Assembly: GCA_026395965.1 (NCBI GenBank)
Contig: JAPLXS010000006.1
Span: forward strand, 10,851-74,850
Direction: 5' to 3'
Source: Candidatus Nomurabacteria bacterium
GTDB taxonomy: Bacteria; Patescibacteriota; Minisyncoccia; Phycocordibacterales; UBA9973
DNA: 64,000 bases
In this document: positions 230-62,007 of the stretch, in pieces
Layout of the letters: each line of letters begins with the position of its first letter
Numbering within the stretch: position 1 is the first letter of the stretch
Notes under the pieces: model-generated
What the model saw: the letters and a program-made list of their open reading frames with translations, nothing else
Database searches by the model: none
What the model was told of the DNA's origin: nothing
Translations under genes and position numbers: made by a program

Positions 230-1744
230 ATGCTCAAAAAGCAAACAGAACAGCAAAAGATTGGATATTTTATAAAAGAGCTCAGAGAGCGTCGTAATAT
301 GACACAAGATGCATTTGCGAAAGCACTAGAAACATCTCAGAGTGCTGTTGCTCGTATGGAAAAAGGTGAACAAAATTTTAGCACCGAAATACTAGGAAAA
401 ATAAGTGAGGTATTAAATCATCAAATTGTTTCTATAAATAATTCAATAGACTTTCAGATAAACGGTGGTAGAAAATTACACGGAAGCATAAACACGAATT
501 TCTCTAAAAATGGCTCGGTTGGTCTTCTTTGTGCTTCACTACTAAACAAAGGAAAGACTACTCTTCATGGTATTGCACGAATAGAAGAAGTTTATAGAGT
601 AATAGAATTGATTGAAAGCATCGGAGTTTCTGTAAAGTGGATCAATCATAATTCAGTATTAGTTACTCCTCCAGTTAAGTTTAATATGGATAAGATAAAC
701 GTAGAATCCGCCATAAGAACTCGCTCTGTTATCATGCTTATAGGCCCTCTAATACACCTATTGCCTATGTTCTCTATCCCCCATGCTTCAGGATGCAAAC
801 TAGGCAAAAGGACGATAAGTGCCCATACTTATGCGCTTGAAGATTTGGGAGTTAAAATAAAAACATTAAATACTGAATATAAAATTGAAAGCAAAAAATT
901 AAAACCTGCAGATATTGTAATGTATGAAGCTGGAGATACTGCATGTGAAAATATCTTGACTGCTGTATCAAAAATAAATGGCATCTCAACTATTCGATTT
1001 GCTAGTGCAAACTATATGGTTCAAGAAATATGTTTTTTCTTAGAAAAACTCGGTGTAAAAATAGATGGAATCGGAACATCAACTCTTGTAGTGCATGGAG
1101 TTAAAGATATAAATACTGATATAGAATATTACAATAGTGAAGACCCTATAGAATCTATGATGTTTATCTCTGCTGCTATTGCAACTGATTCAGAGCTCAA
1201 AATATTACGTTGCCCTATAGATTTTCTCTCTCTTGAAATAGAAAAACTAAAACGAATGAGATTAAAATACAAAATTCTTAAAAAGTATAAATCCTACAAC
1301 GAGAGAACAAATCTAGTTGATTTACAAATATTTCCATCTAAGCTCGTAGCACTTGAAGATAAAATCCACGCAAATCCTTACCCCGGTGTAAATATGGATA
1401 ACCTTCCATTCTTTGTACCTATCGCGATAAAAGCAAAAGGACAAACCATGATTCATGATTGGGTGTACGAAAATCGTGCTATATACTTTACAGAGCTCAA
1501 TAGACTAGGTGCTAGCGTCACCCTTGCTGACCCACATAGAGTATATATACAAGGAGGAACCCCTCTTAAAGAGGCTCAAGTAGTTTGCCCTCCTGCACTA
1601 CGTCCTGCCATGATAATACTCATAGGAATGCTGGGAGCACAAGGTACATCTATTTTGCGTAATGTATATATGATCAATCGTGGATACGAAGAGATAGCAG
1701 AAAGACTAAACTCCATAGGTGCTGATATAAAGATAATAAAATAA
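230..1744 (+). CDS. murA: UDP-N-acetylglucosamine 1-carboxyvinyltransferase (MurA/EPSP-synthase fold) with an N-terminal XRE-family helix-turn-helix extension of about 70 aa.
   Basis: Residues 10-65 (MTQDAFAKALETSQSAVARMEKGEQNFSTEILGKISEVL) are a typical XRE HTH. From INGGRKLHGSINTNFSKNGSVGLL onwards the protein aligns along the MurA family. The active-site Cys is retained (ASGCKLGKR, compare E. coli GGCTIGAR). ENRAIYFTELNRLGA and INRGYEEIAERLNSIGADI match conserved MurA C-terminal motifs. Confidence 0.75.
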   Translation: MLKKQTEQQKIGYFIKELRERRNMTQDAFAKALETSQSAVARMEKGEQNFSTEILGKISEVLNHQIVSINNSIDFQINGGRKLHGSINTNFSKNGSVGLLCASLLNKGKTTLHGIARIEEVYRVIELIESIGVSVKWINHNSVLVTPPVKFNMDKINVESAIRTRSVIMLIGPLIHLLPMFSIPHASGCKLGKRTISAHTYALEDLGVKIKTLNTEYKIESKKLKPADIVMYEAGDTACENILTAVSKINGISTIRFASANYMVQEICFFLEKLGVKIDGIGTSTLVVHGVKDINTDIEYYNSEDPIESMMFISAAIATDSELKILRCPIDFLSLEIEKLKRMRLKYKILKKYKSYNERTNLVDLQIFPSKLVALEDKIHANPYPGVNMDNLPFFVPIAIKAKGQTMIHDWVYENRAIYFTELNRLGASVTLADPHRVYIQGGTPLKEAQVVCPPALRPAMIILIGMLGAQGTSILRNVYMINRGYEEIAERLNSIGADIKIIK

Positions 1745-5621: not shown

Positions 5622-7100
5622 TTATTCAACTATAGACATATCTTCAGGTCGAATTTCAGAACCTACATAATCAGCTTTATTGTCCTTTCTTTTTATCATT
5701 AAAAAAGCAGCTATACCCATACCAACAATTATAGTTAGGCCAATAAACGCATAAGTCCCATTTGAAACATCAACTCCAGATTGCGATGCATTTGCAGATA
5801 AGTCATTTAGATTTATTATTTGAGAATCTTTAGATTGAGAATTATTATTTATTTCATTTAAAATAGCAGGGTTATCATTTTTTTGATTATTAAATTGTGA
5901 ATTTTTCTGTACAGACTTTTTTGCAATAGTCGGATAAGAAGCTATAACTTCTTTTTTAATATTTGTTATTACAACTGAACCGATATCTTCTCCTGTAAAT
6001 CCAGTTATTTTAGGTGATAATTTTATTTTCTTTCCAGGCAAAAGTGTTGTGCCTTCTGGAATGATAAAATAATGAGTTCCAGCTGTCACTATCCAATTTG
6101 AAAGAGTGATGTCGTAATTGGATTTATTTTCAAGTTCAATAAAAGGATTTGTCTCATCTCCAACTGAACTTATATAAATTTCAGATGCTACAACTTTTAT
6201 AATAATTCTATTTGTAGCATCGGCTTGTTTATTGAAATTATTACTATAATAAGAAAGCGTCATTGAATATTCACCAGGATATTCATAAGTATATTCAAAT
6301 GGACCAGCTCCATTTACTTGATTAATCATCCCATTTCCAAAATTCCAAACCATTTTACCAAAAGCATAAGTATCTCCTTTGTTTGTAGTAGTTTGAGAGC
6401 TAAACAAAAAAGGAATTCCAGCTACGACAATTTTAGGTGATATTATTTTTGTTGTTACTTTTAAAACTCCTGAATCTTTATTGGAAACATTAGAGCTTGT
6501 GCTGATTGAATTTGAATTAGAATAAACAGTATCACTTGTGCTATTTGTACTCGTAACTGCATCCGTATTTGGATTTGTATTACTTTGGTTGGTTCTTCCT
6601 GGTGTTGGCATACCACTACCCCATTCTCCATTTATTTTAGACAATGAACTTTTTGACGCTTTACTTCCTCCGTTTGCAACATCATATGTCGTATAATCCA
6701 ATATTGTTTTATTGGCATCAGAAATAGCTATATAAGTGTTGTCTCCACTATCAGGCAATGAAAGTGCAGATGAGCTAAATATCATATCTGAAAAATTTAA
6801 CCAACTATAATCAGATAAGCTTTTTGCGATAACAGCATATTTTGAAGGCTGCAAAATAGAAGTACTACCACTCTTTAAAGAAATAGGGCTTGAATTTGTT
6901 TCTCCATGAAAAAATCTATATTTATTTAAATCAACAGGAGTAGAACCATTATTATATATTTCCACCCATTCATAATTCGAACCACCTTCTGGAGAATACA
7001 TAATCTCGCTAATTTCAATATTAGCATAAGCAAAATTTACCCAAGAAAAAAATATGGTAAATAAAATAATATTTTGTTTTGATGTTTTTGTTAAAAACAT
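5622..7100 (-). CDS. Secreted, membrane-anchored surface protein: signal peptide, lamin-tail domain (LTD), S/T/N-rich linker, PKD-like domain, second LTD, C-terminal TM helix.
   Basis: NIEISEIMYSPEGGSNYEWVEIYNNGSTPVDLNKYRFF and EIYISSVGDETNPFIELENKSNYDITLSNWIV match the LTD motif. WNFGNGMINQVNGAGPFEYTYEYPGEYSMTL is PKD-like. Hydrophobic N- and C-termini. Confidence 0.6.
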   Translation of the reverse strand: MFLTKTSKQNIILFTIFFSWVNFAYANIEISEIMYSPEGGSNYEWVEIYNNGSTPVDLNKYRFFHGETNSSPISLKSGSTSILQPSKYAVIAKSLSDYSWLNFSDMIFSSSALSLPDSGDNTYIAISDANKTILDYTTYDVANGGSKASKSSLSKINGEWGSGMPTPGRTNQSNTNPNTDAVTSTNSTSDTVYSNSNSISTSSNVSNKDSGVLKVTTKIISPKIVVAGIPFLFSSQTTTNKGDTYAFGKMVWNFGNGMINQVNGAGPFEYTYEYPGEYSMTLSYYSNNFNKQADATNRIIIKVVASEIYISSVGDETNPFIELENKSNYDITLSNWIVTAGTHYFIIPEGTTLLPGKKIKLSPKITGFTGEDIGSVVITNIKKEVIASYPTIAKKSVQKNSQFNNQKNDNPAILNEINNNSQSKDSQIINLNDLSANASQSGVDVSNGTYAFIGLTIIVGMGIAAFLMIKRKDNKADYVGSEIRPEDMSIVE

Positions 7101-7106
7101 GAATTA

Positions 7107-9296
7107 TTATTCTAATACCTTACGAAGAACATCTTCTGGGACTTCTCTTTTGGCTTTTGGCTTTTGCCAGGCTATATTTTTATCTTCATCTTGTTTTATT
7201 TCTTTTTCTTCTTTTGATGGCTCTTCTTTTTTTACAATATGAATTTTATTGGATTCTTTTATTTCATCTATCTCTTTTTCAATCTTGGGTATTATCACAG
7301 GTTCTGATTTTACTGAAACTTCTTCTTTTATTTTTTTATCATTTATATCTGTATCTATTTTTTGAGACATAGCAGCTCTTGCAAGAACATCTTTTAATGA
7401 TGTTTTGTTCTCTTCTGATGCTTCTTTGGACGGTAGTGTACTTGAATACTTATTATTTGTATCATGTTTTTTAAGAGAAGAAAGAGATATTGGAGCTATA
7501 TTTGGAGCTATAGTCCCCTCTGTTATAATCTTTTCTTTAGCCGATTCAGTCTTTGCTTCTTTTGCTATTTGTTCTAAAAGCCCTTTTAGCAAAGGAGATG
7601 GTCCTGTATGTTTCTTTTTGTCTGCAACAGGAGCAGAAACAGTAGATGCAACAATAGGTTTTTGCACAAAAACCTTTGGGTTGGGTTGTGTATCTTTTTT
7701 AAAATTATTAGGAAAATTATTTTTTGAAGGAATCGTTGCTTTTACCTCAACTGGTTTAAATTCTATACCCAAAGCAGCAAGTGGTGCAGTCGAAACTTTT
7801 TCTTCTTGATTGGCAGAGCGAGATGCCACAAATCCAGTCTCTGGTTTTAACTCACCACTCTTAATTTTGAACATACATTCTTTACAGTAAACAGGCCTTC
7901 CTTCTTTTGGTTCAAAAGGAACCATTGTAGATTTTTTACAATTTGAACAATCTGCTTTGTATTTAGCATCACCTTCTCCAACTTGCAACATACCACTCCA
8001 TCTTGATATTTCGTTTTCAACCTCCTCTCTTGGACGAGTAAATAAATTACGTGAAGATTCTATTATTTTTTCTTTAACACCTTTCGAGACATCTATTTTA
8101 ATAGGAGGAAGAGTTGTAGCAGAAAATGGACGACTAGTAATACCATCGATCATAAGTTTTAGATAAATATTGTAGTTAGGAAGATTTACTAGATCCTGAG
8201 CTACAAATTCTGGTTCAAATTCTTTTTCTAGGAAATCAGCGTCATCTGCACCAACACGAAATACAATCATGGTACCTACGTTACCAAAAACAGCATCACG
8301 GACTTTTGAACCATCTTTATTTTCTAGTTGAGCGGTATACTGGTGAGCAACTGTTAGGTTGAGTCTGTATTTACGAGCTTCAGATAGAATATTTGCAAAT
8401 GAATCTGTTGCAAAGTTTTGGAATTCGTCAACATAAAGATAGAAGTCTTTTCTATCTTCTTCTGGTATACGAACACGCTCCATAGCAGCAAGCTGAATCT
8501 TTGTAATAATCATACCTCCTAAAAGAGCAGAGTTATCTTCTCCAATACGCCCCTTTGAAACGTTTACAAGGAAAATCTTTCCTTCATTCATTATTTTGAA
8601 AATATCAATCGTGGATTTTGGCTGACCTAAAACATTTCGAATAATAGAAGTAGAAAGAAACTGCCCTACTTTGTTTTGAATAGGAGCTATCGCTTCATTA
8701 CGAAATTGATCACGCCATTGTTCGTATTCATGAACCCAAAAAGCCTTTACTACTGGGTCTTTTAAGTTGGCTATTATCATCTGGCGATAGTCTTTATCTA
8801 CGAGCAATCTTGGAATACCAAGAAGAGTAGTTCCAGGAGTATCGAGCAGGGCGAGAATAGAATTATTTAAAATATATTCCATACGAGAACTCCAAGCATT
8901 GGCCCAAATCTTTGTGAAAATACCCATAAGACCAGAAGCTACTAAGTGCTTGTACTTTGGGTCGTCTATCTGAAGAACATTGAACCCAATATGAAAGTCT
9001 GTATCTGCTGGGTTGAAATATATAACATCTTTAATTCTATTGTCTGGAATAAGATGCAATATTTCTTCTACAAGTTCACCGTGTGGATCCACAACACAAA
9101 CACCCTCACCGTTTTGAATATTTTGAGCTATAAGGTTAGATAGAAGTACAGATTTACCAGTACCTGATTTTCCAAGTATATACATATGTTGACGACGGTC
9201 TTTTCTTTTTACGCCGAAAACATTATTGCTACTACGAAAATTCGTCTTAGCAAAATAAGTTATATCTCTATTTTGTGGAATTTCATCTTTGTCCAT
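7107..9296 (-). CDS. VirD4/TraG/TraD-like (coupling-protein-like, DUF87/AAA_10-type) P-loop ATPase with a C-terminal C4 zinc ribbon and a K/E-rich low-complexity tail. The family assignment is tentative.
   Basis: Walker A ILGKSGTGKS, the VVDPHGELV motif and Walker B-like FYLYVDEF. CSNCKKSTMVPFEPKEGRPVYCKEC is a CxxC-x17-CxxC ribbon. The terminal 200 aa are Lys/Glu-rich. A paralogue lies at 11012..12367. Confidence 0.6.
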   Translation of the reverse strand: MDKDEIPQNRDITYFAKTNFRSSNNVFGVKRKDRRQHMYILGKSGTGKSVLLSNLIAQNIQNGEGVCVVDPHGELVEEILHLIPDNRIKDVIYFNPADTDFHIGFNVLQIDDPKYKHLVASGLMGIFTKIWANAWSSRMEYILNNSILALLDTPGTTLLGIPRLLVDKDYRQMIIANLKDPVVKAFWVHEYEQWRDQFRNEAIAPIQNKVGQFLSTSIIRNVLGQPKSTIDIFKIMNEGKIFLVNVSKGRIGEDNSALLGGMIITKIQLAAMERVRIPEEDRKDFYLYVDEFQNFATDSFANILSEARKYRLNLTVAHQYTAQLENKDGSKVRDAVFGNVGTMIVFRVGADDADFLEKEFEPEFVAQDLVNLPNYNIYLKLMIDGITSRPFSATTLPPIKIDVSKGVKEKIIESSRNLFTRPREEVENEISRWSGMLQVGEGDAKYKADCSNCKKSTMVPFEPKEGRPVYCKECMFKIKSGELKPETGFVASRSANQEEKVSTAPLAALGIEFKPVEVKATIPSKNNFPNNFKKDTQPNPKVFVQKPIVASTVSAPVADKKKHTGPSPLLKGLLEQIAKEAKTESAKEKIITEGTIAPNIAPISLSSLKKHDTNNKYSSTLPSKEASEENKTSLKDVLARAAMSQKIDTDINDKKIKEEVSVKSEPVIIPKIEKEIDEIKESNKIHIVKKEEPSKEEKEIKQDEDKNIAWQKPKAKREVPEDVLRKVLE

Positions 9297-9330
9297 ATAT
9301 TGTTTTTATTATACTCTATTTTTTGTAAAT

Positions 9331-9358
9331 AAAAAAACACCACACGAGGTATGTGGTG
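9331..9358 (-). terminator. Intrinsic terminator downstream of the formyltransferase-like gene, in minus orientation.
   Basis: Stem caccaca/tgtggtg with a T-tract on the minus strand. Confidence 0.5.
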
Positions 9359-9374
9359 CTTAAATTAATTAATT

Positions 9375-10202
9375 TTAAAGATAAGGTATTATCTTTAAAA
9401 CATAGTGCCTTAATCCAGCAATAAATATGGGTATTTTAGCTGATATATAATTTTTATACATCAAAATAATCCAATCTTCTTCTTGGTCAACTGGGGTATT
9501 ACATATATATGCAATAAACCTTCCGTCATCAAATTTTTCATTTACAAAATGTAATGTTGCTCCTGTGTAAACAGGACCTCCATTTTCTCTTGCAAACAAA
9601 ATTGCATCAAAATAAGGTGCTTTTCCTCTAAAACAAAAAGGTTTATTTATTAAAGTAGGACCTGGATGAATATTAATAACTCTATCGGGCATAAATTTAA
9701 ATAAATATTCAATTTTAGCCATGTACGAATCGAGTATCAATACATCTGCTTCAACCTCTTTTATTTTCTGAAATACAGAAAGTTCAAAATTATATTTTGC
9801 TTCCTTTCTTCCTTTAACATCATCTTTAGATAACTTTCTAAACAATGAAGGTATATTCCAAATACTATCTTCTGGCAATAACTTCGTTGGAAAAATCCAA
9901 GAATCATTGTCTGAAGGAAAGAGAGGAAACTCCCCCTTTAGATCTTCCAAGGTGTCATCATATATAACACCTTTAACCTCAATAAGTCCTTCCAAGATTC
10001 CACCAATAGCAGTTTCTTCTAAGGTACTCTCAATAACTCCCTTCACATAGCGATCAATTCCATTAATATTTAGAAATTGTCCATTGCGTTCTTCCAGAGC
10101 TATGTCTCGAAGTGATGTCATAAACACAATCTTTAAAGGTCTTTCAGGAGTTTTTTCTTTTATAAAATTTTCATCATAAAAGAGCAATGCACCTTCTTTC
10201 AT
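9375..10202 (-). CDS. Formyltransferase-family protein (PurN/Fmt-like catalytic domain) with a divergent N-terminal half.
   Basis: RVINIHPGP with the catalytic Asn and His, and GATLHFVNEKFDDG with the catalytic Asp, align with PurN LLNIHPSLLP and GTSVHFVTDELDGGP. The canonical GAR-binding N-terminal motif is absent. Confidence 0.5.
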   Translation of the reverse strand: MKEGALLFYDENFIKEKTPERPLKIVFMTSLRDIALEERNGQFLNINGIDRYVKGVIESTLEETAIGGILEGLIEVKGVIYDDTLEDLKGEFPLFPSDNDSWIFPTKLLPEDSIWNIPSLFRKLSKDDVKGRKEAKYNFELSVFQKIKEVEADVLILDSYMAKIEYLFKFMPDRVINIHPGPTLINKPFCFRGKAPYFDAILFARENGGPVYTGATLHFVNEKFDDGRFIAYICNTPVDQEEDWIILMYKNYISAKIPIFIAGLRHYVLKIIPYL

Positions 10203-10327
10203 TTTAACTATTTTTTTGTTAAAAAATACTGAATTAACAGTTTCTAGTCTATCTAGATTTTAAACTACTATACAACTAATATAAATAAATGTAAAGGTTT
10301 TATTAATGTTTATATATTTGTTAATAT

Positions 10328-10990
10328 TTGGGCATGATATTCCAAAATTTTCAAAATAAAACTTTCGGTTATTTAAATCTAGATACAGAATCCCTAGACT
10401 GGTATAAAGAAAAAAATATAAATATTGATGATAAAAATATACTCCTTGACCCATATATATGCCAAGAATTTATAGATTATTTACACAAAAAATATTCTCT
10501 TGATTTTTCATATGGAGGATGGATGGAAGATAGAACTCATTTTTTAAAAGATTCATACCTAGAAAATGGAGACAAGTTTATTCATCTAGGAATAGATATA
10601 AATGTTCCAACCAATACAGAAGTTGCTACTGATTTCAAAGCTGAGGTTGTAAAAGTTGGAGATGATTTTGAGGTAGATGCAGGATGGGGGCCACATGTTA
10701 TACTAAAACATCTATCACAACCTATTTATATTATTTACGGTCATTTAGATAGAAATATATTATGCAAAGTTGGTGACATATTAGACAAAGATATTATCTT
10801 TGCAAAAGTAGGATTCCCTCCCCAAAATGGCAATTGGTTCCCTCATGTTCACGTCCAATGTATTAGTTCTCTATATTACGAAGAAATAAAATCCGATATA
10901 GACAAACTTGATGGATATGGTTTTAAAAATGAAATGGAATTAAATGCAAAAAGGCATCCTGACCCTATGGAATTTATATCGTTAAAGTAA
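10328..10990 (+). CDS. M23-family (LytM-like) metallopeptidase.
   Basis: HLGIDINVP (HxxxD), the GWGPHVILKH core and PHVHVQ (HxH) motifs. Confidence 0.6.
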   Translation: MGMIFQNFQNKTFGYLNLDTESLDWYKEKNINIDDKNILLDPYICQEFIDYLHKKYSLDFSYGGWMEDRTHFLKDSYLENGDKFIHLGIDINVPTNTEVATDFKAEVVKVGDDFEVDAGWGPHVILKHLSQPIYIIYGHLDRNILCKVGDILDKDIIFAKVGFPPQNGNWFPHVHVQCISSLYYEEIKSDIDKLDGYGFKNEMELNAKRHPDPMEFISLK

Positions 10991-11011
10991 AAAATTTAAT
11001 AAAAAATTATT

Positions 11012-12367
11012 CTATTCTTTTATTAACTTAATCGCATCTTCCATTGGTATTGCATATTTACGTCGTGAAGCTTCTATTATTTCACTACGATAAGACACAT
11101 GAGTAGGTTCTAGCACTCTCAATGTTTCTGCTGAAAATGGATCATAACTCTCACCATCTATTGTCATTTTTATATAAAATTCTCCTACTCCTAAATTTAT
11201 CATATCTTTTACATCAAAGACTGGTGCAAATTCTGGTTTGAGTTTAGTAGCATCATCTCCTCCGACACGGAATGAGACAATAGTGCTTATATTTCCGAGT
11301 ACTGCTTGTTGTAACTTTGGTAAAAGCTGACCGATATATTGATGAGAAACTATTAGGTTTATGCCATATTTTCTTGCTTCTGATAAAAGATTTTCAAAAG
11401 TATCTGTGATAATGTTATGAAATTCATCTATATATAAATAAAAATCATTGGATTCTTTTGCTCCATGTATAACCCTTTCCATACCTGCTTGTTTTATTTT
11501 TGTTAAAAATATTGAACCAAACAAAGAAGAATTTTCCTCACCGATTTTTCCTTTTGAAAGATTTATTAAAAGAATTTTTTTATCATTCATTAATTGTTCA
11601 ATATTTATTTTATTTTTTTGCTGCCCGAAAATATTTCGAAGCATAGGGTCGGATAGAAATTGCCCTAGTTTATTTACTAGTGGAATAATAGTGTCTGTAT
11701 CAAATTTTAGGGCCCAGTGTTCAAATTCGACAGACCAGAATTTATGCACCATATCGTCTTTTATATTTTCTATAACCTTATCACGATAAGCACTATCAGT
11801 AAGCATTAAAATCATACCTTGCATTGTGGCTTCCTTATAATCCATAAGCGCAAGCAATGTAAAACGAAAAATATGCTCCAATCTTGGAGTCCAATTTGAT
11901 CCGAATTGTTTTCTCAAAACTTCTATAAAACCATGAGTAAGTTGATGTTTAAAAGTTGGATTAATATCTGCTAGTGGATTAAAAGATACTGGATATGCCA
12001 CATCATCTGGATCAACAATACAAACATCATCTACCCTTTCTTTGGGTATAAAGTCCAAAATATCATGAACAAGTTCTCCATGTGGGTCAATAATACAAAC
12101 ACCATGACCATAGGCTATATCCTGACGAATCATAAGTTCTTGTAGTTTAGATTTACCTACACCAGACTTTCCAATAATATACATGTGACGTCTTCGGTCA
12201 ACACGCTTTATTCCAAACACAAATTTCTTTTCTTCTAGGGCAGCTACATAATTGGTCCGTCCGATAAACACAACTTCACTTGGGTCTGCTTTTCCAAGGG
12301 TTGGTAGATCTGGAGGAGGAGGAGCATATTTGATTATTTGAATTTTATTTGGTTTATTTAAAGACAT
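11012..12367 (-). CDS. Second VirD4/TraG/TraD-like P-loop ATPase paralogue. The start is taken at the internal ATG (MSLNKPNK).
   Basis: YIIGKSGVGKS, IIDPHGELV and FYLYIDEF. It is collinear with the 7107..9296 protein but lacks the zinc ribbon and tail. Confidence 0.6.
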   Translation of the reverse strand: MSLNKPNKIQIIKYAPPPPDLPTLGKADPSEVVFIGRTNYVAALEEKKFVFGIKRVDRRRHMYIIGKSGVGKSKLQELMIRQDIAYGHGVCIIDPHGELVHDILDFIPKERVDDVCIVDPDDVAYPVSFNPLADINPTFKHQLTHGFIEVLRKQFGSNWTPRLEHIFRFTLLALMDYKEATMQGMILMLTDSAYRDKVIENIKDDMVHKFWSVEFEHWALKFDTDTIIPLVNKLGQFLSDPMLRNIFGQQKNKINIEQLMNDKKILLINLSKGKIGEENSSLFGSIFLTKIKQAGMERVIHGAKESNDFYLYIDEFHNIITDTFENLLSEARKYGINLIVSHQYIGQLLPKLQQAVLGNISTIVSFRVGGDDATKLKPEFAPVFDVKDMINLGVGEFYIKMTIDGESYDPFSAETLRVLEPTHVSYRSEIIEASRRKYAIPMEDAIKLIKE

Positions 12368-12416: not shown

Positions 12417-13736
12417 ATGAATGAAAAAGAGTTACCTAAAATAAATTCGGAGGTATTAATAGAAAAAAAATTATCATTATTACAAAAAGGAGAATCATAT
12501 ATCAAAAAACTTGGACCTGGAATAATAACAGGTGCAGCCGATGATGATCCTTCTGGTATAGCTACATATTCACAGACAGGTGCTCAATACGGAACTGGTC
12601 TACTATGGCTCGCTGCCTGGACATTTCCGCTTATGGCTATGGTCCAAGAAATGTGTGCTCGTATATCACTAGTTACAGGTAGAGGTTTGGCTGCAAATAT
12701 TAAATATTCCTATTCAAAAAAAGTTCTTTATCTTTGCACCGCCTTACTTTTCGTAGCCAATACTTTAAATATAGGCGCTGATTTAGGTGCTATGGCAAAA
12801 GCCATTCAACTTATATCTCCTTCTATACCCTTTTCTTTCCTAGTTATATTTATTGGTATTACTGGTCTACTTATGGAAATATTCGTTCCGTATAAAAAAT
12901 ATGCCAAATATCTTAAATGGTTAGTTATCACACTATTCTCATATGTAATAACTGGATTAATGATAAATATGGATTGGTCTCTACTGCTTCATGATGGACT
13001 TATTCCTCAAATAACTTTTTCTAAAACACAGATACTTCTCATAACAGGTATTTTAGGAACAACAATATCTCCTTATCTTTTTTTCTGGCAAACATCTCAA
13101 GAAGTTGAAGAACAAATAGCAGAAGGTAAAACAACTGCTCACTCACGCAGAGGAACAAATATAGCTGAAATAAAATCAATGAGAATAGATGTATGGTCTG
13201 GAATGTTTCTATCTAACTTAGTAATGTTTTTTATAGTTGCAGTGTGTGCAAACACACTTTTCTTAAATGGTATTACTGATATAGGCACGGCCAGTGATGC
13301 AGCTGCAGCATTAAAACCATTTGCTGGACAATTCGCAACACTACTCTTCACTATCGGAATAATAGGAACTGGATTACTTGCAATACCTGTTTTAGCTGGG
13401 TCAACATCTTATGCCATCTCAGAAAGTTTTGGATGGAAAGAAGGTTTGTATCGTAAATTAAATGAAGCTCGTTCTTTTTATGCAGTCATAATAGTATCTA
13501 TTTTAATAGGAATTATTATAAATTTCTTAGGTATAAACCCCATCAAAGCTCTCATATACTCAGCTATCGCAAATGGTATAGTAGCTCCCGTAATAATAGT
13601 ATGTATAGTTCATATAAGTTCAAACCATAAAATTATGGGTCATTTCAAAAATTCAAAATTTACCAATATAGTAGGTTGGCTTATCGCTACAATAATGGGT
13701 ATTACAGCTATTGCTGCAATATATTCTCTTTTTTAA
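12417..13736 (+). CDS. mntH: NRAMP-family divalent metal (Mn2+/Fe2+) transporter.
   Basis: GPGIITGAADDDPSGIATYSQTGAQYGTGLLW and MAMVQEMCARISLVTGRGLA are NRAMP signatures. Polytopic. Confidence 0.85.
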   Translation: MNEKELPKINSEVLIEKKLSLLQKGESYIKKLGPGIITGAADDDPSGIATYSQTGAQYGTGLLWLAAWTFPLMAMVQEMCARISLVTGRGLAANIKYSYSKKVLYLCTALLFVANTLNIGADLGAMAKAIQLISPSIPFSFLVIFIGITGLLMEIFVPYKKYAKYLKWLVITLFSYVITGLMINMDWSLLLHDGLIPQITFSKTQILLITGILGTTISPYLFFWQTSQEVEEQIAEGKTTAHSRRGTNIAEIKSMRIDVWSGMFLSNLVMFFIVAVCANTLFLNGITDIGTASDAAAALKPFAGQFATLLFTIGIIGTGLLAIPVLAGSTSYAISESFGWKEGLYRKLNEARSFYAVIIVSILIGIIINFLGINPIKALIYSAIANGIVAPVIIVCIVHISSNHKIMGHFKNSKFTNIVGWLIATIMGITAIAAIYSLF

Positions 13737-17165: not shown

Positions 17166-17825
17166 ATGAAACAATCAAGATTAGACCAATTATCAGACGG
17201 TATTTTTGCTATAGTTATGACTATTTTAGTTTTTGAGATACGAGTACCTGAATTTATGGGTATAGTAAATGAAAAAACTCTTATACATTCTTTAATAATT
17301 TTATCTCCTCTTTTACTCAGCTATCTTCTTAGTTTTTCGCTTCTTTTTACGTATTGGAGATCTCACCATATAATAGCTTCTGTACTCGCAAAAAATATTG
17401 ATGTTCAATTTACAAATCTAAGTGGAATTTTCTTATTTTTAGTTGCTCTTGTTCCATTTTCATCTCACTTTCTTGGAAGTTATATATATTTAAAAACTGC
17501 AGTTATTTTGTTTGCTTTAAATATTATTTTAATAGGTATTTCTCTTTATGCAATGAGACAATATGCTATAAAATCAGAAACAATTGCAAATACTCCTTTT
17601 ACTAGAAAAGAAAATGAGCATGCAAATATGCACATACTATTCCCTCTTTTTGCTTCTATTTTAGCTATAGTTATTTCTTTTTATAGCACAAAGATCGCAA
17701 TTCTTTTATTTACTCTAGCTATTCTTTTTAATTTATCAAAAAATGGAACAAAATATATGTTTTATTTAGTTGATATATTTAGAAATAACACACCGGACAC
17801 TGAAATTATAAAAGAAAGTAATTAA
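17166..17825 (+). CDS. DUF1211/TMEM175-like membrane protein (putative K+ channel family).
   Basis: N-terminal RLDQLSDGIFAIVMTILVFEIRVPE motif typical of DUF1211. Polytopic. Confidence 0.5.
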   Translation: MKQSRLDQLSDGIFAIVMTILVFEIRVPEFMGIVNEKTLIHSLIILSPLLLSYLLSFSLLFTYWRSHHIIASVLAKNIDVQFTNLSGIFLFLVALVPFSSHFLGSYIYLKTAVILFALNIILIGISLYAMRQYAIKSETIANTPFTRKENEHANMHILFPLFASILAIVISFYSTKIAILLFTLAILFNLSKNGTKYMFYLVDIFRNNTPDTEIIKESN

Positions 17826-27671: not shown

Positions 27672-28775
27672 TTATTTACCTGACTTAGTTCTATTATCCT
27701 CTTTACACAACATCTGACAATTATCAGCAATAGTTCTTCCTCCTTCATGCCATGGTTTTATATGATCAGCTTCCATATCTCCAATTGAAAATTCTTTTTT
27801 ACAAAAAGGACAAATACCATCTTGTCGTTCATATGACTCTCGTTTCATATTTGATGTAAATGCTCGAATAGAAAGATATCTCTCTTTTTTAGTAAGTACA
27901 TATGGATAAATACCAGATTTTTTTGTTACATCTTCATCTTGCATTAATTCTTTGATTTCGTTCTCAAGTTTTTTAGAATCAAGTTTTTTATCATTAAATG
28001 TATTATAAAGTTCACCCCAATTTACGCTAGACATTTCTTTTCTATAATTAGGAAAAACTTCTCGCACCCAATGAATTACATTTTGAAAATATTGCCATAG
28101 TTTATCCGCATTTTTATCGTGCTGATGTTTTGACATATAATCTTCTATCTCTTCATCATTTATCCATGATAATGCAGTTTCTAAATATTCTTGTCGAATT
28201 GGAGAACCAGTTATTAATTGCCCTCCGTCATTTGCAAGCAAATATGCAGCACAATTTGTTTTACTAAATTTTAGTTTTACATCAGAAAGCCACGGTCCTG
28301 TATATACGGCATTTCTAAGTTCTTGATTCGTTAATTCCATTCCCGCAATATTGATAATCTTAAACCAATCAAGCTTTTCTTTCTCTTCTCCTTCGCAATG
28401 ATAAATCATAAGTTCATAATTTAAAATCTGTTCTTGTTCTTCTTTGGTTAAATTATGAAACATTGCGGTTCGTCCATTGAAATCAATTGAAAAATCACCA
28501 TTTACATATTGAGCTATACTAATTGTTCTTTGTTGTCCATCAAGTACTTCAAAATTTCCGTCTTCCTTTTTTACCCAATACATAACATTAAGTGGAAAAT
28601 CCTTTTTAATTGTTTTGATTACCTCGTCACGATGTTTAACATCATATACAAATTCTCGCTGGTATTTTGGACGAATATCTAATTTACCACCAAAAGCAGA
28701 TACTCCTTCTTCGGCGCTATCTTTATAGTCTTTTACAACTTCTTCAATTTTAATTTTATGTAAATCTATTTTCAT
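27672..28775 (-). CDS. DUF262 (ParB/Srx-like NTP-binding domain)-HNH endonuclease fusion. Candidate restriction or defence nuclease.
   Basis: PKYQREFVYD and LDGQQRTISI are the DUF262 signatures. The C-terminal CPFCKKEF...DMEADHIKPWHEGGRTIADNCQMLCKEDNRTK is a canonical HNH motif. Confidence 0.65.
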   Translation of the reverse strand: MKIDLHKIKIEEVVKDYKDSAEEGVSAFGGKLDIRPKYQREFVYDVKHRDEVIKTIKKDFPLNVMYWVKKEDGNFEVLDGQQRTISIAQYVNGDFSIDFNGRTAMFHNLTKEEQEQILNYELMIYHCEGEEKEKLDWFKIINIAGMELTNQELRNAVYTGPWLSDVKLKFSKTNCAAYLLANDGGQLITGSPIRQEYLETALSWINDEEIEDYMSKHQHDKNADKLWQYFQNVIHWVREVFPNYRKEMSSVNWGELYNTFNDKKLDSKKLENEIKELMQDEDVTKKSGIYPYVLTKKERYLSIRAFTSNMKRESYERQDGICPFCKKEFSIGDMEADHIKPWHEGGRTIADNCQMLCKEDNRTKSGK

Positions 28776-28776
28776 A

Positions 28777-29871
28777 TTATTTTTTTACCTTTTTATTTCT
28801 TATAACTATTCGAACATAAGTAGGTTTACCATTTATTGCACCATCTTTATCTTTAATAAGTCCGTGATCTTTAAATGGCACTCTATCATTAGTTCTGATG
28901 TTATTTGAGCTTATTATTTCAAATTGCGCTGGGTTATATTTATCTAAAAATGTTATTGGCACCCCCATTGCTCCTTTATAATCCATTGGAATATCACTTA
29001 CTTTGTCAATATTTATAGCTTTATAATTGTCATATTCTAGAAATTCTTTTGGTGAATATTTTTTATATAAAGTCATTTCTTGGTGACGTTTTATAGTATC
29101 TAGGTTTGTAAACCACATAATACGCCCCATACTAAAAAATTTTATATTATTTTCAATTTTTATTCTCGTCTCTGTTTCTATATTATAATCATCAGGAACT
29201 TGGAACCATTTAGTTCCACCATTATCATAGCCAAGCCACAACTTATCTTCTTTAATCAATTTAAAAGTTTCTTTATATGTGATAGCATTTTGATCACCAA
29301 GAATCAAAAATTTTTTATTATATTCAACTAATTGTGCAACATATTCTCTAAATAATGAAAAAGGAGGGTTAGTTACTACAATATCCGCCTGTTTTAAAAG
29401 TTCAATACTTTCTAGACTTCGAAAATCTCCATCGCCATTCATAGGCAACCATTCGTTGTTTTTATTTGCTTTTAGTTGTTCTGCAATATCACGCAAATCA
29501 AAAGCACCGTCACCATCTAAATCATGAACTTCATTTATAATAAATTTATTAGCATTCACTTTTGGACGACCTTTTACCGAAACAAGTGTTTTATCATTAC
29601 CAAATAATGCCAACTGAGTATTGGCAATTGGTGAAGGTTTATAACTAGTAGCAATAAGCCTTTTTAAACCAAGAGCATTAAAGTTTGATGCAAAATATTT
29701 AAAAAAATTACTTTCAAAAGGATCATCACAGTTACAATATACTACTTTGTTACGAAATTGTTCCTTGTAGTGTTTTAACTCTTTTTCAATATCAATAAGC
29801 TGAGTATAAAACTCATCCTTTTTTGCTTTGTTTGCCTTATGTAAATTATTATTTAATGATTTAGTAACCAT
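28777..29871 (-). CDS. N6-adenine DNA methyltransferase of the EcoRI-methylase-like family.
   Basis: DEFYTQ near the N-terminus, VVYCNCDDPFESNFFKYF, and catalytic motif IV IVVTNPPFSLFREY (NPPF). The family assignment is from memory of M.EcoRI-like proteins. Confidence 0.6.
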   Translation of the reverse strand: MVTKSLNNNLHKANKAKKDEFYTQLIDIEKELKHYKEQFRNKVVYCNCDDPFESNFFKYFASNFNALGLKRLIATSYKPSPIANTQLALFGNDKTLVSVKGRPKVNANKFIINEVHDLDGDGAFDLRDIAEQLKANKNNEWLPMNGDGDFRSLESIELLKQADIVVTNPPFSLFREYVAQLVEYNKKFLILGDQNAITYKETFKLIKEDKLWLGYDNGGTKWFQVPDDYNIETETRIKIENNIKFFSMGRIMWFTNLDTIKRHQEMTLYKKYSPKEFLEYDNYKAINIDKVSDIPMDYKGAMGVPITFLDKYNPAQFEIISSNNIRTNDRVPFKDHGLIKDKDGAINGKPTYVRIVIRNKKVKK

Positions 29872-61092: not shown

Positions 61093-62007
61093 CTAAGCAC
61101 TAGCTTGTTTTGTTGTTAAAATTTCTATCGCTTTAGTCAAAAGAGGAATCATGTTGTCGTACATCCTAAGACCAGGAACTTCACTTAATGAAAACCAACG
61201 AGCATCATCGAGACCGCCTGTACCTTTTTCAAGAGTTATTTCAGAGCATTCTGATTCTCCCAAAAAGAAGACTACTTGTTTTCTGATTTTTCCTTTTTCT
61301 GGATGATTTGCAATATATTCGTTACGTCCAAGCAATTCTTTTATCTTTATGTCTAGATTCATTTCTTCTTTTATTTCACGAATAGCTCCTTCTTCTTCAT
61401 TTTCTCCTTCTTCTATACTTCCTTTTGACAGAGTCCAGTAGCCAAAAATATCATGAACAAATGCAAAATATATTTCGTCATCTTTTTTAGAATAAACAAC
61501 AGATCCTGCCTTTTTTTCTATTGGAAATTTTGCTGGGTCTGTTTCAAAAACTTTATTCTTTTTCTTTCCAACTTCATCTTTTCCTGGTTCACCTATTTCT
61601 TTGTAGACACCTCCAAGAACTCCGTTTATGAACTTACTTGAATTCTCTCCACCAAAACTTTTAGCAAGTTCAATGGATTCATTGATAGCAACTTTTGGAG
61701 GAACCTGAGTTCTATCACCAAAAAGAAGCTCGTATAAACCTATGCGGATTATATTACGGTCAACAATAGATATTTTGTCGATAGGCCAATCAGGAGCTGC
61801 TTTTTCTATTATCTCATCTATTATAGATTTCTTCTTTACAACACCAAGAAAAAGCTCAGTCATAAATTCTGAATCATCTAAGCCAGGACCAAACTCTTCT
61901 ATATTTCGGACAAGCATGTCCTCGGGGGTTATGTCTTTAGTAACAGCAAAATCCCACTCAAAGAGTGTTTGTAAAACAATTGAACGTGAAAGGTGCCTGT
62001 TTGCCAT
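61093..62007 (-). CDS. nusB: Transcription antitermination factor NusB fused to a C-terminal NUDIX hydrolase domain.
   Basis: N-terminal 140 aa NusB-like (HLSRSIVLQTLFEWDF, NESIELAKSFGGE). C-terminal GSIEEGENEEEGAIREIKEEMNL fits the NUDIX box Gx5Ex7REUxEExGU. Confidence 0.7.
   Translation of the reverse strand: MANRHLSRSIVLQTLFEWDFAVTKDITPEDMLVRNIEEFGPGLDDSEFMTELFLGVVKKKSIIDEIIEKAAPDWPIDKISIVDRNIIRIGLYELLFGDRTQVPPKVAINESIELAKSFGGENSSKFINGVLGGVYKEIGEPGKDEVGKKKNKVFETDPAKFPIEKKAGSVVYSKKDDEIYFAFVHDIFGYWTLSKGSIEEGENEEEGAIREIKEEMNLDIKIKELLGRNEYIANHPEKGKIRKQVVFFLGESECSEITLEKGTGGLDDARWFSLSEVPGLRMYDNMIPLLTKAIEILTTKQASA

Follow-up and report, generated by a model that had tools for sequence, protein, structure and literature searches.

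The closest described relatives of the genes considered here are the coupling proteins of conjugation and type IV secretion systems (T4SSs). In Patescibacteria this family has already been catalogued, both by NCBI annotation and in the one published survey, by Quinonero-Coronel et al. (2025). According to that survey, 5,713 VirD4-type homologues occur in 2,918 of 3,035 patescibacterial genomes, about two per genome, with only 148 of the 5,713 near virB4 and with VirB4 itself present in 2,417 genomes (PMC12102498). The survey leaves the function of these homologues open, states that exaptation "cannot be ruled out", and points out that coupling-protein genes often lie far from virB4 in ordinary conjugative systems (PMC12102498). 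The present analysis concerns a duplicated, split form of this family, the paralogous ATPase genes ATP1 and ATP2, in 64,000 nucleotides of a Candidatus Nomurabacteria bacterium (assembly GCA_026395965.1, contig JAPLXS010000006.1, positions 10,851 to 74,850); this whole stretch is called the window.

The reading favored here, held with some confidence though well short of certainty, takes ATP1 and ATP2 for the motor part, on the cytoplasmic side, of a type IV coupling protein (T4CP) that has been split into separate genes and fixed in the chromosome. The protein would come from the VirD4 lineage of monoderm and archaeal conjugation and be inherited vertically in Patescibacteria. The features that carry this reading are as follows.

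7107..9296, minus strand: ATP1, a coupling-protein-type (VirD4/T4CP) ATPase of 729 aa with no transmembrane (TM) helix, assigned by Pfam, fold search, and homologues
7977..9296, minus strand: ATPase core of ATP1, aa 1-440, delimited by invariant columns and secondary structure
7866..7961, minus strand: CxxC-x17-CxxC zinc ribbon of ATP1, aa 446-477, matching PF23477 and TIGR04272
7110..7865, minus strand: K/E-rich low-complexity tail of ATP1, aa 478-729, recognized by composition
11012..12367, minus strand: ATP2, a 451-aa paralogue lacking ribbon and tail, 44% identical to ATP1

ATP1, ATP2, and their lineage

ATP1 and ATP2 belong to the VirD4/TraG coupling-protein lineage, not to FtsK, HerA, or VirB4. 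Pfam, fold search, and homology to proteins encoded in conjugation clusters on plasmids agree on this. An earlier, sequence-only reading of the same DNA, made without database searches, had taken the two for paralogous VirD4/TraG-like ATPases and had asked for a decision among the VirD4/TraG, FtsK/HerA, and VirB4 clades. The kinship it saw is real, the decision falls on the coupling proteins, and the ORFs of ATP1, ATP2, the neighboring LTD (lamin-tail domain) gene, and the other genes nearby are all confirmed. The two ATPases align at 44% identity over 419 aa (E 7e-127). ATP1 matches TrwB_AAD_bind at 54.8 bits (cut-off 20.5), with TraG-D_C, T4SS-DNA_transf, and DUF87 also above their gathering scores, and ATP2 matches TrwB_AAD_bind at 34.6 bits, with T4SS-DNA_transf and TraG-D_C again above cut-off. 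A protein identical to ATP1 carries the NCBI product name [quoted passage not shown]. When ATP1 is compared with solved structures by sequence, TrwB is the only match, and a Foldseek search of the PDB ranks TrwB first (E 1e-7), followed by DotL, Cag-beta, and then HerA and VirB4.

The competing clades score lower. VirB4 models match only on the P-loop (E 4e-4 or weaker, far under their cut-offs), and AAA_10 reaches 16.6 bits against a cut-off of 27.5. DUF87 passes its cut-off (34.5 against 23.2) but is weaker than the coupling-protein model, and HerA structures rank lower in the fold search. Pfam gives no FtsK_SpoIIIE match in either ATPase, and no NurA-type nuclease family turned up in the neighbor census of related loci described below. 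The idea that the ATPases stand in for a missing FtsK was considered and dropped; transcriptome papers on Saccharibacteria (TM7x) mention FtsK. Membership is at the level of the superfamily and not of a named subfamily, since the NCBIfam equivalog models (TraD, CD1115) fall far under their cut-offs, for example, 51.6 against 366.

The core of ATP1 has a Walker A motif, GKSGTGKS, at aa 42-49, a Walker B DE at aa 290-291, and a helical insertion at about aa 113-237. Walker A in the form GKSG(T/V)GKS and the (V/I)DEF motif are invariant across ATP1, ATP2, and 14 homologues, as are other core residues, and conservation of the core exceeds 90% among close relatives. Neither ATPase has the N-terminal TM anchor that coupling proteins carry in the same chain; a hydrophobic-segment scan finds no TM segment in ATP1 or in ATP2, in keeping with what the sequence-only reading had seen. 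A hidden TM helix in ATP2 was considered because its longest open reading frame (ORF), which begins with a TTG at 12505, adds a hydrophobic stretch. This extension is not conserved in 16 orthologues, and their alignment places the true start at the ATG at 12367, where they share the N-terminal motif KIQIIKYAPPPPDLP.

The accessory parts of ATP1 set it apart from its paralogue. The ribbon and the K/E-rich tail had been recognized from the letters alone, and both hold up. The ribbon matches zf_Tbcl_2 (PF23477, E 4.9e-13) and TIGR04272 (E 9.9e-14) through the cysteines C450, C453, C471, and C474, and 65 of 82 ATP1-type proteins have it with the exact x17 spacing. A CxxC-x17-CxxC domain binds zinc in small proteins of Methanosarcina, where it has been assigned no function (PMC12704099). 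The tail is 251 aa of mixed charge, disordered, 29% K+E, with a net charge of +6. Its sequence varies, but a terminal motif, WQKxKAKxEVPEDVLRKVLE (7110..7172), is conserved among close homologues, and the protein ends in ...EVPEDVLRKVLE. Across the related loci the C-terminal motifs of ATP1-type proteins are clade specific and take the form EVPEDVLRK[VI]LE, [VI]xKPG[EQ]x[VI]KF, or xDLxELRxxLxExL. These endings look like docking peptides for a partner.

Spread, gene order, and the PF26449 partner

ATP1 has thousands of full-length homologues at 70-82% identity. With one genome taken per GTDB species, at least 595 species-level genomes encode a relative. Among the matches listed, the named lineages are all Patescibacteria and comprise Paceibacteria, Doudna-, Moran-, Uhr-, Kerfeld-, Falkow-, Nealson-, and Wolfebacteria, and others. 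The ATPase core is 53-73% identical across classes, which speaks for a core gene passed on vertically and not for a mobile-element gene. To describe the neighborhood, ORFs were called in 80 fetched related loci (designated L001 onward where one must be named) and the neighbors were clustered; position counts refer to 79 loci.

The conserved neighbor of the ATPase is an upstream membrane protein of family PF26449, 430-530 aa long with an N-terminal TM helix, which is present in 60 of the 80 loci and is here called the anchor. Of 79 loci, 50 have it immediately upstream and codirectional with the ATPase (median gap, 8.5 bp), and another 7 have it no more than three genes away. The family has no match in the local copies of Pfam or NCBIfam; in a large protein collection it is recognized as PF26449 and almost always named "hypothetical protein". 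An AlphaFold model of the anchor has fair confidence (pLDDT 80, pTM 0.77), and its 13 best Foldseek matches in the PDB all fall on TrwK/VirB4 from plasmid R388 (E 4.6e-5 to 1.2e-3), with ferredoxin-like folds next and far weaker. The possibility that the anchor is a degenerate copy of the ATPase was rejected: alignment of anchor and ATPase profiles with hhalign shows no similarity.

Anchor and ATPase also occur as a single chain. In L080 they form a fused protein of 831 aa. Its family numbers at least 120 members, about 830-850 aa long and 62-91% identical, which carry PF26449 together with PF10412. This is a second widespread paralogue in Patescibacteria. The missing TM helices of the ATPases are thereby accounted for, since the membrane part is a separate upstream gene in most Patescibacteria and is fused in others.

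Where ATP2 belongs in this scheme is indicated by neighbor-joining trees, which resolve three clean ATPase clades: ATP1-type (mostly ribbon bearing), ATP2-type, and fused. Of the 79 loci, 16 have an ATP2-type gene, in each case no more than five genes from an ATP1-type gene. Anchors that adjoin ATP2 (L013, L014, L020) group with the ordinary split-type anchors found beside ATP1-type genes. The three separate clades and this grouping of the anchors speak against ATP2 being a split-off half of the fused paralogue; we infer from them that ATP2 is a clade-specific duplicate of the ATPase that arose within a subgroup of Paceibacteria. The N terminus of ATP2 contains KYAPPPPDLP. A comparable sequence, KKxxPPxxLP, is found at the C terminus of the anchor, and the linker in fused proteins resembles the ATP2 motif too. 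This likeness suggests that the duplication took in the 3' end of an anchor gene.

The recurrent gene order in the related loci is SecD-SecF-[Sigma70_r4/HARE-HTH]-anchor-ATPase-housekeeping genes. The bracketed gene encodes a protein of about 360 aa with Sigma-70 region 4 and HARE-HTH, found two genes upstream of the ATPase in 42 loci (e.g., L032:5505-6593). Another family, here labeled "c3Zn", comprises proteins of 560-590 aa with several CxxC...CxxC ribbons and no Pfam match; there are 33 copies in 12 Paceibacteria loci, often flanking an ATP1-type gene (L002, L004-L011, L018, L020, L022, L024; e.g., L004:2490-4220). A search of the window for the Sigma70_r4/HARE-HTH gene, SecDF, and the c3Zn family found none of them, RpoD being the only match to the sigma domain.

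Patescibacteria make up a large share of bacterial diversity, and their exchange of material with host cells is poorly understood. With about two copies in nearly every genome and a conservation like that of ribosomal proteins, this ATPase is an obvious candidate for a central transport step. The comparison provides three handles on it: the ATPase is half of a split protein with an unannotated membrane partner, a fused paralogue exists, and the ribbon-bearing tail ends in clade-specific docking motifs.

A proposed coupling role and its alternatives

As motor halves of a coupling protein, the ATPases would be expected to assemble as rings of six on the cytoplasmic side of the membrane, after the pattern of TrwB, TraD, and VirD4. 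The zinc ribbon and the docking peptide at the end of the disordered tail could recruit a partner or a substrate. The model here is TraD of the F plasmid, in which a C-terminal extension recruits TraM. ATP hydrolysis would then pass the substrate, either a DNA-protein complex or a protein, to a membrane channel, most likely the patescibacterial T4SS, which would be encoded elsewhere in the genome.

Several points weigh against this reading. The proposed hexamer, the binding of DNA, and the function given to the tail are all carried over from analogous proteins. The structure model of ATP1 is weak (pLDDT 64), and the TM-scores of its fold search are only 0.3-0.4. A sequence-profile comparison of the anchor with the PDB gives no match at E <= 10. 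Searches of the window, of about 10 kb adjoining one end of it, and of the DNA up to 8 kb from ATP1 in the 11 nearest species turned up no anchor gene; the anchor-less loci of the window's closest species are those that bear ATP2. The ATPases in this clade may be truly soluble or use another anchor. No T4SS gene lies near the ATPases. VirB-type, other mating-pair formation (MPF), and relaxase genes were not seen among the approximately 35 annotated genes of the window, as the sequence-only reading had said of VirB-type genes, and no MPF or relaxase genes stood out in the neighbor census of the 80 related loci. Finally, an obligatory T4SS role is called into question by Southlakia epibionticum, for which the survey reports that the homologue is dispensable and the T4SS essential (PMC12102498). 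The two paralogues could be redundant, which would soften the argument from dispensability.

The alternative that survives best, although we regard it as doubtful, is that the locus encodes an exapted housekeeping translocase: a split coupling protein that no longer depends on a T4SS and acts alone or with another channel in a core process of these reduced cells. Such a process might be the uptake of DNA as a source of nucleotides, the handling of the chromosome during division, or the export or insertion of a specific protein. The conservation described above is unusual for a coupling protein, the gene is embedded in a conserved housekeeping gene order, and the zinc ribbon and the tail with its clade-specific motifs are accessories absent from the coupling proteins matched here. 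The rarity of homologues near virB4 and the Southlakia result point the same way (PMC12102498). Nothing positive, however, favors any particular alternative process, and the distance from virB4 loses force given that ordinary systems often show it too. Prevalence was also considered as proof of independence from the T4SS, the coupling-protein homologues being found in 96% of genomes against 80% for VirB4. This argument was set aside, for by our own calculation the same figures would arise if the genomes were about 80% complete and carried two copies of the former gene and one of the latter.

A related and more speculative proposal, which we think a little less likely still, is that a vertically inherited two-gene motor made of the PF26449 anchor, with its VirB4-like fold, and the zinc-ribbon ATPase, with its docking tail, has been domesticated across the phylum to serve a core function of the epibiotic lifestyle, such as the movement of DNA or nucleoprotein, apart from classical conjugation. 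In the clade of the window it would have been remodeled by the duplication that gave ATP2, by loss or relocation of the anchor, and by the placing of a DNA- or surface-binding LTD protein in the operon.

The sequence-only reading had proposed something else, namely that the ATPases, an LTD-PKD-LTD surface protein, and an M23 peptidase form an undescribed minimal apparatus for moving nucleic acid across the envelope. The further genes on which that proposal draws are the following.

5622..7100, minus strand: LTD-PKD-LTD surface protein of 492 aa with signal peptide and TM segment, assigned by Pfam LTD
9375..10202, minus strand: formyltransferase-like gene between the paralogues (Formyl_trans_N, 36 bits)
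10328..10990, plus strand: M23-domain protein (Peptidase_M23, 38.8 bits; cut-off 28.7)

The junction between ATP1 and the LTD gene is as tight as had been described. Six base pairs (TAATTC) separate the ATP1 stop from the ATG of the LTD gene, there is no terminator between them, and the two are very probably cotranscribed in this clade. The LTD protein has two LTD matches that total 72.4 bits (cut-off 34.3); its PKD match, at 20.8 bits, is under the cut-off of 23.5 but significant in orthologues (4.6e-10). A signal-like sequence at the N terminus closes with AYA, and a TM segment spans aa 448-471 near the C terminus, ahead of a cytoplasmic tail of 20 aa; these features bear out the description of a secreted, membrane-anchored protein. 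Upstream, a terminator-like hairpin with an 11-bp stem and a T-run lies at 9335..9361 (minus strand), between the formyltransferase-like gene and ATP1. With only about 38 nt between this hairpin and the start codon of ATP1, the promoter of ATP1 must overlap the hairpin or lie ahead of it.

The case for an apparatus of ATPases, LTD protein, and peptidase draws on this junction, which the three nearest species (L001-L003) retain at spacings of 3-11 bp, and on a second lineage in which a protein of similar architecture follows the ATPase. That protein, at L049:9858-10955 in Niyogibacteria, has 365 aa in the order signal peptide-LTD-PKD-TM and is 23% identical to the LTD protein of the window. The recurrence may be fortuitous or the relic of an earlier linkage; as a sign of a functional link it is not significant, for a rough estimate gives about 0.5 chance events over approximately 76 loci. 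Co-conservation of ATPase and LTD genes, whose absence the sequence-only reading had itself listed among the points that would refute its proposal, does not extend further: an LTD orthologue directly follows ATP1 only in L001-L003, and an LTD gene of any kind is downstream in just 4 of the 66 loci scanned. What follows the ATPase is not conserved (PGK 8, EF-P 6, MnmA 5, LTD 4, AlaRS 3, thioredoxin 3). The partnership of ATP1 with the LTD protein is clade specific and not a conserved part of the system. A local functional link suggested by their adjacency may exist, for example, through a surface adhesin coexpressed with the motor.

The peptidase fares no better. The M23 domain is real, but the protein is probably cytoplasmic and not a cell-wall enzyme, since it has no signal peptide or TM segment and its ORF cannot be extended upstream; it also lies on the opposite strand and has no homologue in the 80 related loci. 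The formyltransferase-like gene, which had been described as divergent, is on the same strand as both ATPases, and a homologue occurs in only 1 of the 80 loci (95% identity, in L023). In L003 nothing separates ATP2 from ATP1, neither the M23 nor the formyltransferase-like gene lying between them, and in L001 and L002 the only intervening genes are two small ORFs. The M23 and formyltransferase-like genes, which separate the paralogues in this lineage only, therefore appear to be lineage-specific insertions unrelated to the ATPases. The partner that is conserved is PF26449, and a family that NCBI annotates and that has been surveyed (PMC12102498) is not an undescribed system. On these grounds the proposed apparatus is very improbable, and for the window itself the outcome is mostly one of correction, in that the grouping of ATPases, LTD protein, and M23 protein is local gene order and not a conserved system.

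It is least credible of all that the ATPases are remnants of an integrated conjugative element, decaying or selfish genes without host function, because although homologues sit on conjugative-type plasmids and a restriction-modification islet lies elsewhere in the window, the catalytic motifs are intact and the sequence highly conserved, the locus is single and syntenic across classes, the gene is nearly universal in the phylum (PMC12102498), no integrase, relaxase, or MPF gene lies nearby, and GC content stays flat across the ATPase region at the approximately 32% found throughout the window.

The other genes annotated in the window are housekeeping or common accessory genes. They include enolase, pyruvate kinase, a MurA-like protein, a class I methyltransferase, Nramp, a phospholipase-D-fold protein, Ddl, UvrA, UvrB, UvrC, TGT, MreB, MreC, ProRS, DnaG, RpoD, RpoB, RpoC, RNase R, SMC, and a NusB-NUDIX fusion. 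Beyond one end, about 10 kb more from a Logan contig add only UvrD, PheST, GyrB, and ThrRS; beyond the other, the contig adds only about 1 kb (MurB). Some of these genes are worth recording in their own right. The restriction-modification or defense islet (27672-29871, minus strand), located between TGT and MreC, pairs a GmrSD_N+HNH endonuclease with an EcoRI-type adenine methyltransferase. At 230-1744 (plus strand) an enzyme of the MurA/EPSP-synthase fold has an HTH_3 (XRE-type) DNA-binding domain fused at its N terminus, and at 61093-62007 (minus strand) NusB and a NUDIX hydrolase domain share a single 304-aa ORF. A homologue of TMEM175-type potassium channels is encoded at 17166-17825 (plus strand), in a reduced genome.

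Comparison with known coupling proteins

The homologues surveyed by Quinonero-Coronel et al. are very probably the same genes as those described here, with the same NCBI product name. The passages of that survey that were searched mention no zinc ribbon, upstream anchor, fused or split forms, tail motifs, or ATP2-type duplicate (PMC12102498).

With VirB4 (TrwK) the resemblance lies in the fold match of the anchor and in the fused form, which at about 830 aa is close to VirB4 in length. The anchor differs from VirB4 in having no sequence-level match to it, and the ATPase half fits coupling proteins better. The classical coupling proteins TrwB (R388), VirD4, TraD, DotL, and Cag-beta share with the window ATPases a Walker A/B domain with an inserted helical domain and a TraG-D_C region, at an identity of only about 15-19%. 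They carry two N-terminal TM helices in the same chain, whereas Patescibacteria have a separate anchor of about 450 aa with a VirB4-like fold.

Closer relatives are found on plasmids. A tblastn search with the ATP1 core returns 642 plasmid records, with 33-39% identity to plasmid coupling proteins. The closest relative outside Patescibacteria (39% identity) is encoded on the Sulfitobacter plasmid NZ_CP081110 (L081, 7986-9173). It is a stand-alone ATPase of 395 aa with no TM helix, and this alphaproteobacterial gene sits between recombinase and transposase genes with no anchor or conjugation genes nearby.

A further comparison is with coupling proteins of monoderm and archaeal conjugation systems. 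On the Embleya plasmid NZ_CP108778, an 812-aa coupling protein has the homologous region as its C-terminal half (33.5% identity, E 9e-65), and the neighbors of its gene (PrgI-family, VirB3-like; ATP-binding; replication-relaxation; NlpC/P60 hydrolase) place it in a conjugation cluster. Its N-terminal half matches the hidden Markov model (HMM) of the anchor colinearly (E 3e-12), including the ...ELAxxxHxP motif. The 65-kb Bacillus subtilis plasmid CP120602 encodes, upstream of transfer genes of the TcpD and TcpE families, a 913-aa "DUF87" protein that likewise has two parts, the N-terminal half matching the anchor HMM (E 2e-25) and the C-terminal half the ATPase HMM (E 2e-51). A relative of 1006 aa is found on Sulfolobus pARN3.

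All three proteins share a homologous ATPase with the window genes, at 25-34% identity over 88-97% of the core, and the ATPase HMM matches those of Embleya, Bacillus, and Sulfolobus at E 5e-90, 2e-51, and 7e-46, respectively. The Embleya and Bacillus proteins also contain the N-terminal domain that Patescibacteria encode as a separate gene. The window ATPases differ from all three in that they amount to just the ATPase half and lack both the N-terminal domain and a TM helix. A further difference is that they are chromosomal, duplicated, and set among housekeeping genes with no MPF or relaxase genes nearby, and to the shared ATPase ATP1 adds a zinc ribbon and a disordered tail of about 250 aa.

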